This document shows positions 58,436 to 62,565 of a stretch of DNA of 64,000 bases, in pieces. The notes below the pieces were generated by a model. That model did no database searches, was not told where the DNA came from, and worked only from the letters and a program-made list of their open reading frames with translations. The DNA lies in assembly GCA_021838945.1 (NCBI GenBank), contig JAKCCH010000001.1, positions 7,974 to 71,973 on the forward strand, read 5' to 3'. Position 1 is the first letter of the stretch. The number at the start of each line of letters is the position of its first letter. The translations under genes were made by a program, and so were the position numbers. This stretch comes from Actinomycetes bacterium (lineage in GTDB: Bacteria; Actinomycetota; Acidimicrobiia; Acidimicrobiales; Bog-793).

Positions 58436-58465
58436 ATGGTAAGCGTTCTTCTACAACGCGCACAA
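58436..58465 (-). promoter_or_regulatory. candidate promoter P3 with embedded operator (aminotransferase/flavin reductase operon)
   Basis: The minus strand reads TTGTGC, then the 18-nt spacer gcGTTGTagaAGAACgct, then TACCAT. The spacer is the exact reverse complement form of the GTTCT-N3-ACAAC site in P2. Confidence 0.45.
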
Positions 58466-58550
58466 GTGGTCGTCGTCAACTAACACTCGCGCGGGCCTCC
58501 ACCGCCACCTCGCTGCGAAGCGTGCCTGGCGCCTTGCAGCCGGGAGGTGC

Positions 58551-59126
58551 CTACTTGTGCAGGGTCACCCAGACGGCGCGGGCGGGCTCGGAGGAGTCGT
58601 TCCAGTACCGATGAGGGAGGCCCGAGTCGAGAGCTATCGAGTCTCCAGCGTGAAGGACGAACTGATGGAAGTTGATCTGCACGTTGAGATTCCCCTCCAG
58701 TACCACCCCGTACTCCCTCCCGGGATGCCGGATGAGCGCGCCGTCCTCCGCGGTCGACGCATGAGGCTCGTACACGTACTCGCAGAAGTCGAGGCCGTCC
58801 TCCGGCGCGGGCAGCAACAGCTGAGCCCGCACCCCGCTTCGAAGGTGGATCTCTTGGCGCTCGTAGCGGGACCTGATGTACCGATGGTTCGTGCCCGGGC
58901 GGAGGGAGTTTGTCTCCCCCTGCTCGTGAGGCTCGGCTGTGAACTCCTCGCCAAAGATGGACTCCATCGTCACGCCCAGATGGGGCACGATCGCGATGAG
59001 CAGGCTGACCGACGGTTCGACGATACCTCGCTCCACCTGGGAGATGTGACCGGCGGAGCAGCCCACCTGGCGTGCGAGCTCACGCACACCGAGGCCCCTC
59101 GCCTCGCGGGCCGAACGGAGCCTCAT
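58551..59126 (-). CDS. XRE-family HTH transcriptional regulator with C-terminal cupin domain
   Basis: ATG at 59126 (MRLRSAREARGLGVRELARQVGCSAGHISQVERG) gives 191 aa. It has a cupin-like C-terminus (GREYGVVLEGNL...HAGDSIALDSGLPHRYWN). The track N-terminal extension is rejected. Confidence 0.8.
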   Translation of the reverse strand: MRLRSAREARGLGVRELARQVGCSAGHISQVERGIVEPSVSLLIAIVPHLGVTMESIFGEEFTAEPHEQGETNSLRPGTNHRYIRSRYERQEIHLRSGVRAQLLLPAPEDGLDFCEYVYEPHASTAEDGALIRHPGREYGVVLEGNLNVQINFHQFVLHAGDSIALDSGLPHRYWNDSSEPARAVWVTLHK

Positions 59127-59347
59127 CCCGAGCGTGTGCAAGGTCAGCGACGCTGCGGGCCCGCTGCGGCGGTCGCTCGCCCCGCTCGCGGGCCTGATGG
59201 CCGAGGTTCCGGAACGGCGTCCTGCCACGGCAGGCACTCTAGTCCCAGGTCCCCCAACAAGATTCGGTCCGCCTCCTGCGATTCGGAGCAGATCGACCTG
59301 CTCTCTGCCTCGCCGGGGGATGGCTTCGAATGTGGCTGTTCTATTCC

Positions 59348-59377
59348 TTGACAGGTTGTTCTGTGCAAGAATACAGT
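59348..59377 (+). promoter_or_regulatory. candidate promoter P1 with embedded operator (tautomerase/ABC operon)
   Basis: TTGACA (59348-53) is followed by the 18-nt spacer ggtTGTTCTGTGcaagaa and then TACAGT (59372-77). A second TGTTCT copy lies at 59337-59342. RBS aaaggag precedes the ATG at 59398. Confidence 0.5.
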
Positions 59378-59397
59378 TCGCCGGAAAGGAGTCCGAC

Positions 59398-59583
59398 ATG
59401 CCAGTGGTGAACATACACGAGTCCGCTGGACGCACCACCGCGCAGCGCAGCGAGCTCGTGAAGGCGATAACCGATGCGTTTGTCGCGGCCTACGGCGTAC
59501 CGGCCGAGTCCGTGACGGTCTTCTTCAGCGCCTACACCGAGGAGCAGTGGGGCAAGAGCGGGCGGCTCAAGAGTCAGACCTAA
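59398..59583 (+). CDS. 4-oxalocrotonate tautomerase family enzyme
   Basis: 61 aa starting MPVVNIH, where Pro follows Met as in the catalytic Pro1 hallmark. The size and beta-alpha-beta pattern (SELVKAITDAFVAAYGVPAESVTVFF) fit this family. Confidence 0.8.
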   Translation: MPVVNIHESAGRTTAQRSELVKAITDAFVAAYGVPAESVTVFFSAYTEEQWGKSGRLKSQT

Positions 59584-60563: not shown

Positions 60564-60664
60564 ACTCAGCTCTCAGTTAGTCGACTCCGACGGCCGGTCC
60601 GTCAGTCATACGATGAACCGGTTCGGGCGCGCCGCTGAACCCACGGCCACGGAGGATCACACAA

Positions 60665-61660
60665 GTGATACGTGATCTTGTGACACGCTCTGAACAGGCC
60701 GCCACCGACCGCCCGGGCGAGGAAGCTTGGACGTTGCCGATCCGGCCGAGGCGCCGGATCGGCTACTGGCTCGTCGCCCTCGTCACGTGCCTCTGCATCG
60801 CGCTCCTCATCGCCTCGCTGGCGACGAACAAGGCAATGCAGTGGGGCGTCGTCGGCACCTACCTGTTCAACAGTCAGATCCTCCACGGCGCCACGATCAC
60901 CTGCGAGCTCACGGTCTTCTCCATGATCCTCGCCGAGCTGATCGCCGTCCCGATCGCCCTCTTTCGGCTCTCCGGCAACGCGTTCCTCCGTGTCGTCGGC
61001 TACCTGTACGTCTGGATGTTCAGGTCCATACCGCTTCTTGTACTGCTGATCGTGTGGTTCAACATCGGCCTCTTCTATCCGCGCATCGGGTTCGGCATCC
61101 CGTACGGCCCCGTCTTCGTCAGCGCCTCGACGAAGCAGCTCGTCACGGCGCTGGACGCCGCGGTCGCGGCCCTCGGTCTGAACGAGGCGGCATACTCCTC
61201 CGAGATCCTCCGGACGTCCATCCGCGCCGTCGCAGCAGGCCAGCGCGACGCCGCCAAGGCGCTTGGCATGAGGTCAACAGTCATGTTCCGACGGATCATC
61301 CTTCCGCAAGCGGTGAAGATAGCGATCCCACCGCTCGGCAACGACACGATCGGCATGGTGAAGAGCACAGCGCTTGTCGCGTTCATCGCGGTGCCCGACC
61401 TGCTTTACTCCTCCCAGACGATCTACGAGTCGAACTACGAGGTGGTGCCGCTGCTCATCGTGGCGTCGATCTGGTACATCGTGATCGTCACCGTACTCAC
61501 GATCATCCAGTCGCTTCTCGAGCGCTGGATGGACCGCTCGATGCGTAGCGCTGCTCGCCCGAACGTGGCGAAGCTGGCCGCGGGCTCACTGCATTCTCGC
61601 GAGGCTTTCGGTGCCTGGCGCACGGTGCCGGGCCTCGGCGAGAGCGAGACCGACACATGA
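60665..61660 (+). CDS. amino-acid ABC transporter permease (His/Glu/Gln/Arg/opine family)
   Basis: GTG at 60665 follows ggagga, giving 331 aa. The EAA-loop region reads LNEAAYSSEILRTSIRAVAAGQRDAAKALGM. Confidence 0.85.
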   Translation: MIRDLVTRSEQAATDRPGEEAWTLPIRPRRRIGYWLVALVTCLCIALLIASLATNKAMQWGVVGTYLFNSQILHGATITCELTVFSMILAELIAVPIALFRLSGNAFLRVVGYLYVWMFRSIPLLVLLIVWFNIGLFYPRIGFGIPYGPVFVSASTKQLVTALDAAVAALGLNEAAYSSEILRTSIRAVAAGQRDAAKALGMRSTVMFRRIILPQAVKIAIPPLGNDTIGMVKSTALVAFIAVPDLLYSSQTIYESNYEVVPLLIVASIWYIVIVTVLTIIQSLLERWMDRSMRSAARPNVAKLAAGSLHSREAFGAWRTVPGLGESETDT

Positions 61661-61688
61661 CGCGCAACCGATGGTGCGAGGCACTCGG

Positions 61689-62483
61689 ATGAGCACATCG
61701 CCGGCGAGCGAGTCCCCGGCGCCGGACCCCCTTCTGACCGCGCGTGATGTCGTGAAGCGTTTCCACCACAACTGTGTGGTGGACCATGTCTCGCTCGACG
61801 TGAACGAGGGGGAGACGGTCTGCGTCATCGGACCGTCCGGCAGCGGCAAGACGACGTTCCTCAGGTGCATCAACTACCTCGAGAAGCCCGACGGGGGCGT
61901 CATCTCTCTTGCCGGCACACTCATCGGCTACAAGATCGACAAGGGTCATCTCGTGGAGCTTCGGCCGGCCGCGCTCGCTCGTCAGCGGGCGCAGATCGGG
62001 ATGGTCTTCCAGCACTTCAACCTGTTTCCGCATCTGACAGTGCTCGCGAACGTGATCGAGGCCCCGTTGCGGGTGCTGCGGCGGAAGCGCAGCGAGCTCG
62101 AAGACGAGGCGATGCAGCTGCTTGCCGACGTGGGCCTCGCCGACAAGGCACATGCCGCGCCGAGCCAGCTCTCCGGCGGTCAGCAGCAGCGGGTGGCGAT
62201 CGCTCGTGCGCTCGCGATGAAGCCCCGCGTCATGCTCTTCGACGAACCCACATCGGCGCTCGATCCTGAGCTCGTCGGCGAAGTGCTCGGCGTCATCGAG
62301 AAGCTGACGGCAGCCGGGCTCACCTCCGTGGTCGTCACCCACGAGATGGGGTTTGCCCGGCACGTCGCAGACCGCGTGGTGTTCATGGACAAGGGACAGG
62401 TCGTCGAAACGGGAGCTGCTCAGCAGGTGCTCGGTTCACCAGAGCACCAGAGAACACGGGAATTCCTGGCGAAGGTGCTGTAG
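61689..62483 (+). CDS. amino-acid ABC transporter ATP-binding protein
   Basis: ATG at 61689. It carries Walker A GPSGSGKTT, the signature LSGGQQQRVAIARAL and Walker B MLFDEPTSALD. Confidence 0.9.
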   Translation: MSTSPASESPAPDPLLTARDVVKRFHHNCVVDHVSLDVNEGETVCVIGPSGSGKTTFLRCINYLEKPDGGVISLAGTLIGYKIDKGHLVELRPAALARQRAQIGMVFQHFNLFPHLTVLANVIEAPLRVLRRKRSELEDEAMQLLADVGLADKAHAAPSQLSGGQQQRVAIARALAMKPRVMLFDEPTSALDPELVGEVLGVIEKLTAAGLTSVVVTHEMGFARHVADRVVFMDKGQVVETGAAQQVLGSPEHQRTREFLAKVL

Positions 62484-62535
62484 CGGATAGGTGCGCGCGG
62501 GGTGCCGAGCCGTTGCCGGCCCGAACCGCTGCAGA

Positions 62536-62565
62536 TTGACTTGGTGTTCTGTGACAACATACACT
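62536..62565 (+). promoter_or_regulatory. candidate promoter P2 with embedded operator (crotonase/amidohydrolase operon)
   Basis: TTGACT (62536-41) is followed by the 18-nt spacer tggTGTTCTGTGACAACA and then TACACT (62560-65), 72 nt upstream of the GTG at 62637. Confidence 0.5.

Follow-up and report, generated by a model that had tools for sequence, protein, structure and literature searches.

A probable operator for an XRE-cupin regulator in two, and perhaps three, promoters of an acidimicrobial gene cluster

Introduction

Do the promoters around a gene for an XRE-cupin regulator carry an operator for that same regulator? The question arises in a 64,000-nt stretch of assembly GCA_021838945.1 (contig JAKCCH010000001.1, positions 7,974 to 71,973), which comes from a member of the Acidimicrobiales and which we call the window. 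An earlier note on this DNA, made from the letters alone, proposed that three promoters near the regulator gene (P1, P2 and P3) share an operator-like element in the spacer between the -35 and -10 boxes. We think it quite likely, from comparisons with related loci, that the regulator is a local repressor that would occlude P1 and P2 by binding a 19-bp operator in each of them (O1 and O2), and that a metabolite would release it. P3 is more doubtful.

Results

Two promoters share an element in the same register

The promoter strings that the earlier note had reported are all present exactly as given, and the three spacers are 18 nt, as it had claimed.

59348..59377, + strand: promoter P1, TTGACA-ggttgttctgtgcaagaa-TACAGT (-35 at 59348-59353, -10 at 59372-59377; spacer ggtTGTTCTGTGcaagaa)
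62536..62565, + strand: promoter P2, TTGACT-tggtgttctgtgacaaca-TACACT (-35 at 62536-62541, -10 at 62560-62565; spacer tggTGTTCTGTGACAACA)
58465-58436, - strand: weak candidate promoter P3, TTGTGC-gcgttgtagaagaacgct-TACCAT (spacer gcGTTGTagaAGAACgct)
59357..59375, no strand assigned: operator O1, TGTTCTGTGCAAGAATACA (left half perfect, right half AATACA)
62545..62563, no strand assigned: operator O2, TGTTCTGTGACAACATACA (left half perfect, right half CATACA)

We predicted promoters from their match to the consensus, scoring the -35 and -10 boxes over 12 positions. P1 matches at 10 of the 12 positions, which is the best sigma-70-like match in the window, and P2 matches at 9. Between 56 and 64 kb, P1 and P2 are the sole sigma-70-like sites (0.6 were expected). 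The window is 68% G+C, and the same rule finds just three matches in all 64 kb, P1 and P2 among them, so the TTGACA/TACAnT promoters of this regulon stand out as unusual here. P3 fails the rule because its -35 box is only TTGTGC.

P1 and P2 have TGTTCTGTG in common, at an equal offset from the -10 box. When we searched the window for GTTCTGTG-N6-TACA and allowed up to two mismatches, there were two matches, both perfect, and these are P1 and P2.

The regulator's clade has a 19-bp palindromic operator

To see what the element looks like elsewhere, we used loci that encode relatives of the window's regulator or of its aminotransferase (numbered L001 and so on). When genome contigs were scanned, the regulator protein as sole query turned up no relative, and an alignment of the clade turned up 80 loci, spread over the Actinomycetota. 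These genome-derived loci (~1.08 Mb) and 79 independent metagenome loci, about 160 in all, are our family sets.

The operator of this clade is a 19-bp palindrome, YGTTCTsT-N3-AsAGAACR, or TGTTCT-N7-AGAACA for short. Relatives at 38-52% identity have different operons next to them, and there the left half is the same and has AGAACA as its partner across a gap of seven bases. For example, the full palindrome is found in TTGACAta-TGTTCTGTGTAATAGAACA in L008 and in TTGACAgg-TGTTCTGTGTTGTAGAACA in L013. In the 80 genome-derived loci, we found 8 perfect copies of TGTTCT-N7-AGAACA and another 18 with one mismatch (0 and 1.05 in shuffled sequences), and these copies directly adjoin the regulator gene. 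Among gaps of 0 to 12 bp, tested at zero or one mismatch, only the 7-bp gap is enriched; a modest excess at gaps of 3, 6 and 9 bp comes from coding sequence, with its 3-nt periodicity.

We then built a 19-bp matrix from 25 of the sites in the genome-derived loci, leaving out the window and its close orthologues. In the independent metagenome set, this matrix found 95 sites of at least 12 bits, as compared to 3.7 in shuffled sequences. Most of these sites (81/95) are no more than 400 bp from the regulator gene (~13% of the sequence is this close to it), and 54 of the 79 loci have at least one of them. In the consensus from this set, G2, T3, A17 and C18 are almost invariant, and position 16 is T in 15% of half-sites.

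Scored with this matrix, O1 ranks first of the ~64,000 positions in the window (19.5 bits, a score reached in 1 of 200 shuffled windows), with two mismatches to TGTTCT-N7-AGAACA. O2 ranks second, with 15.0 bits. The next position has 8.2 bits; this rank-3 match, at 20828, is inside a 1076-aa open reading frame (ORF), so we treated it as chance. O1 and O2 are both in ~160-bp spacers that adjoin the regulon, and inside the two strongest promoter matches of the window. From the shuffles, we estimate the joint chance of finding both in two such short spacers at ~1e-7 or less. Both operators start 3 nt after the -35 box, end on the fourth base of the -10 box (TACA), and keep the nearly invariant G2, T3, A17 and C18. 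In other words, the last four bases of the AATACA half of O1 are the first four of the -10 hexamer of P1. O2 also holds ACAAC at a 3-bp gap, which we return to below.

The layout is kept in close orthologues

Regulators that are 58-65% identical to the window's are found in three further lineages: L002/L015 (an Acidimicrobiaceae metagenome-assembled genome, or MAG, from palsa peat), L004, and L005/L095. As in the window, their neighbours include genes for a binding protein (SBP), a permease and an ATPase, for an enoyl-CoA hydratase (ECH), and for a DUF6282 protein. The regulator gene is divergent from the SBP-permease-ATPase operon in L004 and L005 and also in L001, a 96%-identical relative with ~90% DNA identity to the window. 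The order ECH-DUF6282 is kept in L002 and L004.

L015, ECH promoter: TTGACA-gg-CGTTCTGTACGAAAATACA-gt
L015, SBP promoter: TTGACA-gct-TGTTCTGTCTCAGCATACA-tt
L004, SBP promoter: TTGACC-aac-TGTTCTCTGTCACGGTACA-tt
L005, SBP promoter: TTGACA-ac-CGTTCTGTGTGACCGTACA-ct

Among these lineages, the intergenic DNA is otherwise unalignable, and every transporter or ECH promoter keeps the layout. Counting the window, four independent lineages have TTGACn-N2/3-[TC]GTTCT[GC]T...TACA-nT, with the right half-site merged with the TACAnT -10 box. GTTCT always starts 14 nt before the -10 box, while its distance from the -35 box varies by one base (the spacers of the L015 ECH and L005 promoters are 17 nt), so the element is anchored to the -10 box. 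Position 16 is T in all 6 of the promoter sites of the window's sub-clade, which creates TACAnT. The right half in the L015 SBP promoter is CATACA, as in P2.

The motif, its register and its linkage to the regulator gene are conserved. The proposal of a repressor-type operator common to the spacers of P1 and P2 stands: the motif travels with the regulator clade and has the same register in three other lineages. This operator most likely belongs to the adjacent XRE-cupin regulator.

A local repressor would block P1 and P2

The regulator gene and the genes that it would, or for P3 may, control are as follows.

58551..59228, - strand: XRE-cupin regulator gene (225 aa from the GTG at 59228; Pfam HTH_31/HTH_3 and Cupin_2)
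59398..62483, + strand: P1 operon (tautomerase, SBP, permease, ATPase)
59398-59583, + strand: 4-oxalocrotonate-tautomerase-family gene, first gene of the P1 operon (Pfam/NCBIfam)
59646-60563, + strand: SBP_bac_3 lipoprotein, the binding protein, P1 operon (Pfam/NCBIfam)
60665-61660, + strand: ABC permease, P1 operon (Pfam/NCBIfam)
61689-62483, + strand: ABC ATPase, P1 operon (Pfam/NCBIfam)
62637-63419, + strand: enoyl-CoA hydratase, first gene of the P2 operon (Pfam ECH_1)
from ~63412 past the window end, + strand: DUF6282 gene (Pfam, 1.3e-56), so that the P2 operon spans 62637..64000 of the window
56769-58226, - strand: class I/II aminotransferase, downstream of P3 (Pfam)
56079-56765, - strand: flavin reductase, downstream of P3 (Pfam)

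From the sequence patterns above, we infer binding, dimerization, repression and release by an effector. The regulator would recognize the 19-bp operator as a dimer. On O1, it would keep RNA polymerase off the operon for the tautomerase and the ABC importer, and on O2 it would keep RNA polymerase off the operon for the enoyl-CoA hydratase and the DUF6282 protein. Each operator extends across the spacer into the -10 box, of which it takes in the first four bases, and occlusion of the promoter is the simplest reading. A metabolite of the pathway would be sensed by the cupin domain, and the repressor would then let go. A weaker third target may be P3, which lies upstream of the genes for the aminotransferase and the flavin reductase.

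Several observations weigh against this reading. The right halves of the window's operators match AGAACA at just 4 of 6 positions in P1 and 3 of 6 in P2, so that these operators are half-palindromic; their affinity could be low, or TACA might reflect promoter function alone. A score of 15.0 bits, as for O2, is reached somewhere in 64 kb in 13 of 200 shuffled windows (6.5%). Our matrix scan of the window found no operator at the regulator's own putative promoter. Our route to the palindrome began with a search of the relatives for GTTCT[GC]TG as it stands in the window, which makes the left half dependent on the window; independent of it are the right half, the 7-bp spacing and the link to the regulator gene. 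O2 and P3 have a 13-mer in common, which is unlikely to be pure chance and which the 7-bp-gap model does not explain. We also rejected the conserved blocks in L001 as evidence, since, by our estimate, a relative this close should have perfect blocks of 31-41 nt by chance. Finally, NceR, an XRE-family protein that PMC12724383 groups with the XRE-cupin regulators, is reported to be an activator.

Other explanations of the shared element

The degenerate right halves might be there for a reason. The operator could be asymmetric by design, with the perfect half anchoring the repressor and the -10 box in place of the other half, so that the repressor and the sigma factor would compete for the same four bases. 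ACAAC at the 3-bp gap (in P2 and P3) could then offer an alternative register, which the long and poorly conserved linker between the helix-turn-helix (HTH) and cupin domains might allow. Taken with the exchange of regulators in orthologous enzyme clusters (described below), the regulon would mark an uncharacterized catabolic pathway for an amino or sulfonate compound, with the aminotransferase, tautomerase, ECH, DUF6282 protein and ABC importer as its parts. We consider this elaboration of the repressor model doubtful.

Another explanation starts from that 3-bp gap. On the model that follows from the earlier note, the operator would be a 13-bp imperfect dyad, GTTCT-N3-ACAAC, with half-site centres 8 bp apart, functional in all three promoters. 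The window has exactly two perfect matches to GTTCTNNNACAAC, at P2 and P3 (both on the + strand). They are in the spacers that flank the regulon, and from base composition we would expect ~0.03 matches. Also, in P2, ACAACA matches AGAACA at 5 of 6 positions, while CATACA, the half at the 7-bp gap, matches at 3 of 6. However, none of the 80 genome-derived loci (~1.08 Mb) holds an exact copy of the dyad, and the family matches at the 3-bp gap are almost all in coding sequence, in keeping with the excess at gaps of 3, 6 and 9 bp. Nor is ACAAC a common half-site: it is missing from P1 and from the L015, L004 and L005 promoters. The operator that the family supports is TGTTCT-N7-AGAACA, whose 7-bp gap alone is enriched. 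We rejected the dyad as the operator of the family and think it very unlikely to be the real site.

Alternatively, the element might be a part of the promoter itself, such as a spacer and -10 signature for RNA polymerase or for an alternative sigma factor, or it might be the site of a global regulator of the CRP/GlxR type. The right part of the element, TACAnT, is a plain -10 hexamer with the left part at a fixed distance from it, and P2 contains TGTGA. Against this, the motif of the relatives is palindromic, and only 10 of the family's 191 sites stand behind a TTGACn -35 box in the window's register. Whatever operon adjoins the regulator gene, the sites are concentrated less than 400 bp from it, orthologous enzyme clusters with other regulators lack them, and no further position in the window holds one. 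This explanation seems improbable. We also considered an extracytoplasmic function (ECF)-type sigma factor, whose motif would be GGAAC...CGTT, and dropped it as the partner element is missing. A likeness to the RecA-independent (PafBC) promoter motif was dropped because both its spacing and its sequence differ.

The regulator could also bind at these sites as an activator or with two roles; it might, for instance, remodel a spacer that is too long. The 18-nt spacers are 1 nt above the optimum, and the activation reported for NceR would be a precedent. In contrast, the orthologous L015 ECH and L005 promoters have spacers of 17 nt, and the site covers four bases of the -10 box, which is the position for occlusion. 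The regulator has no MerR-type domain, and spacers of the MerR type are 19-20 bp, not 17-18 nt as here. DbuR and all eight of the XRE-cupin factors studied in Pseudomonas aeruginosa are repressors (PMC7901475, PMC12724383), and we rate activation as quite improbable. That the likeness of P1 and P2 is chance, or the functionless relic of a duplicated promoter, is strongly disfavoured: the window has just two clear copies, and the score of P2 has a window-wide p of ~0.065, but the layout is kept at 58-65% regulator identity where the surrounding DNA is unalignable, and the operator is enriched across the family.

P3 as a possible third target

If the XRE-cupin protein does repress P1 and P2, there is still the question of P3, which the earlier note had listed as a candidate promoter bearing the same element.

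58444..58462, no strand assigned: O3, which is CGTTCTTCTACAACGCGCA when read on the + strand (a candidate for a weak operator or a half-site, with CGTTCT as its good half)

One good half-site, CGTTCT, is there. The other half breaks a near-invariant position, with G where A17 is 98% conserved, and O3 scores just 6.2 bits, which is rank 5 in the window, as compared to 19.5 bits for O1 and 15.0 for O2. On the other hand, only 0.017 matches of this level are expected in the 324-bp spacer, the equivalent in L001 scores 6.3 bits, and O3 lies ~90 bp after the regulator's stop codon, where many family loci hold a site. (In L001, the -10 box of P3 reads TACTGT.) We put the odds that P3 is a true target of the regulator at roughly even. 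A second weak match nearby, at 58467..58485 (TGGTCGTCGTCAACTAACA), has 7.0 bits in the window and its equivalent in L001 has -0.2 bits, so it is probably chance.

P3 is separated from the start codon of the aminotransferase gene by a leader of ~200 nt (58227-58430, - strand). The leader has no Rfam match, and an Rfam scan of 55-64 kb gave nothing above chance. We dropped a riboswitch as an explanation for P3, as the leader folds no better than shuffled sequences (z = +1.1). Read-through from the regulator gene into the aminotransferase gene is possible, as no terminator is predicted between the two.

Whatever controls it, the aminotransferase (an unusual protein of 485 aa) belongs functionally with the P1 and P2 operons, judging from its neighbourhoods elsewhere. 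Its orthologues at 72-78% identity (L175-L181) adjoin a tautomerase gene in 2 of the 3 lineages examined, and the L175 orthologue also sits with genes for an ECH, a DUF6282 protein and an ABC transporter. The enzyme set of L175 matches that of the window's clade more broadly (ECH, CoA ligase, old yellow enzyme (OYE)-type flavoprotein, tautomerase, DUF6282, acyl-CoA dehydrogenase and DAO-type oxidase), and what differs is an NMT1-type binding protein, a TauE-family exporter and a TetR regulator. L178 has the CoA ligase, DAO-type oxidase and NMT1-type transporters in common with L175, and a LysR regulator. We found no XRE-cupin gene in L175 or L178, and no operator of at least 12 bits in the aminotransferase clusters that are regulated by TetR or LysR. 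It seems that a related pathway has had its regulator exchanged; its substrate is possibly sulfonate-like or amino.

The regulator protein and its own promoter

The earlier note had called the regulator an XRE-cupin protein, and Pfam agrees. There is an N-terminal HTH domain of the XRE (Cro/CI) type (HTH_31 at 5.6e-11, HTH_3 at 1.5e-09) and a C-terminal Cupin_2 domain (2.1e-17, residues 127-187 of the 191-aa form); Pfam found no MerR domain. The HTH region also matches ClgR and SinR chains in the PDB. Across the aligned clade, the recognition-helix segment S-[AP]-[GS]-H-[IV]-S-Q-[VI]-E-R is invariant.

The gene was placed correctly at 58551-59126, except, probably, for its start: the ATG at 59126, which would give 191 aa, is internal to a longer frame, and the GTG at 59228, which gives 225 aa, is the more likely start. 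Homologues are 200-240 aa and have the N-terminal extension. The NCBI records of the same organism have 225 aa, while the JGI call in L001 has the 191-aa form. An indel relative to L001 lies just outside the GTG start, and the next indel is of 3 nt and in frame.

59236..59241, - strand: putative -10 box TAGAGT of the regulator's own promoter (from reading the sequence; 7 nt before the GTG)

This block is conserved in L001. With TAGAGT just 7 nt before the GTG, the regulator's mRNA is probably leaderless. In L004, a second good operator (CGTTCTGTGTGGATGCACA, 13.8 bits, at 7702-7720) lies 34 nt upstream of the regulator's start, which makes autoregulation likely in that lineage; the window has no equivalent.

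Additional half-sites upstream of the promoters

59337-59342, + strand: extra TGTTCT, a lone half-site 5 nt upstream of the -35 box of P1

The extra TGTTCT that the earlier note had reported at 59337 is present, and its significance is doubtful. We rejected it as a part of the operator: it reads TGCTCT in L001, so it is not conserved, and it has no partner half at the 7-bp gap. Several relatives have AGAAC(A/G) as an additional half-site, which lies 4-5 nt before the -35 box and about three helical turns from the main operator (L008 ~5700, L019 ~3690, L020 ~1135, L021 ~3715 and L015 ~14888-14906). The window's TGTTCT has the same distance from the -35 box and the opposite orientation. The upstream AGAAC(A/G) in the relatives hints at an auxiliary site.

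Other members of the clade

The clade includes regulators from Arthrobacter, Streptomyces, Nocardioides, Microbacteriaceae, Pontimonas and Acidimicrobiia MAGs. They resemble the window's regulator in their recognition helix and in having the operator beside the regulator gene, and the Arthrobacter and Streptomyces members also have the TTGACA-N2/3-operator register. The relatives keep a symmetrical AGAACA right half, whereas the window's right halves are degenerate, and other gene sets adjoin them (Rieske oxygenase, amidase, DJ-1/PfpI, AllG). For example, in the Arthrobacter-type loci L008, L010, L013 and L014, the regulators are 45-52% identical to the window's and the operators are perfect. 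Nearby genes encode a Rieske oxygenase, a Fer2 reductase, DJ-1/PfpI, an amidase, AllG, and glutamate-synthase-like or glutamine-synthetase (GS)-like proteins. This is a different, likewise uncharacterized regulon for a nitrogen compound, with the same operator. In the literature that we searched, whose coverage was incomplete, we found no description of this Actinomycetota clade or of its operator, which is not proof of novelty.

Discussion

Comparison with known XRE-cupin systems

The XRE-cupin regulators that have been characterized are local repressors, with palindromes of 15-25 bp over the -10 box, and pathway metabolites release them (PMC7901475, PMC12724383). In Pseudomonas aeruginosa, each of the eight XRE-cupin factors studied inhibits locally and has palindromic sites, and PuuR and PauR respond to polyamines (PMC7901475). 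The window has an XRE HTH domain, a C-terminal cupin, a palindrome in the range of ~15-25 bp, and overlap of this palindrome with a predicted core promoter. In other words, the window's system belongs to the known arrangement of PuuR, PauR, PsdR and DbuR.

A close parallel in layout is DbuR from Pseudomonas putida, which represses the dbuABC operon for D-amino-acid catabolism and protects a 20-bp palindrome, AATTCTCATATATTAGAATT, that includes the -10 box (PMC12724383). Both systems have the same pair of domains, a divergent regulator gene, and a ~20-bp TTCT...AGAA palindrome that covers the -10 box, and in both the target operon encodes catabolic enzymes and a transporter. DbuR comes from another phylum, and the likeness is of domains, layout and site. 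The arms of the palindrome are TTCT-N8-AGAA for DbuR and TTCT-N7-AGAA for the window's clade. DbuR has a single operator and one operon, while the window has two (perhaps three) promoters, with the right half-site fused to the -10 box.

PuuR of Escherichia coli and PauR, PsdR and ErfA of P. aeruginosa also combine an XRE HTH with a cupin and are local, specialized repressors of neighbouring metabolic operons; they bind palindromes as dimers, and their published consensus sites differ from one another (PMC7901475). PuuR is the best NCBIfam match of the window's regulator (equivalog NF007408), at 73.3 bits against a cut-off of 211, so the regulator is PuuR-like and not an orthologue of PuuR. The PuuR site is AAAATATAATGAACA, which has TGTTCA in reverse. 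According to Pfam, none of the regulator's neighbours is a gene of the gamma-glutamylation (puu/pau) pathway, which is another difference from PuuR.

The borders of the cluster

On one side, the cluster borders on a stretch (54003-57000) that is possibly of foreign or mobile origin. It includes a gene for a DUF6788 protein (54003-54542, - strand), and between 54.7 and 57 kb there are long ORFs on the + strand that have no Pfam match, in a region where every frame is open.

What the finding means

The cluster appears to be an inducible unit for the breakdown of a nutrient under an ordinary local repressor switch. The finding leaves the understanding of the XRE-cupin regulator class unchanged. 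What it adds is a concrete candidate operator, YGTTCTsT-N3-AsAGAACR, for a clade of these regulators that is widespread in the Actinomycetota and seems not to have been described, and the assignment of a small local regulon in an uncultured, Acidimicrobiia-like organism. The repressor-operator pair could serve for biosensor work in high-GC hosts. The regulon would unite the DUF6282 protein, the tautomerase of the 4-oxalocrotonate tautomerase (4-OT) family, and the 485-aa aminotransferase as one inducible catabolic unit, which helps in guessing its substrate.

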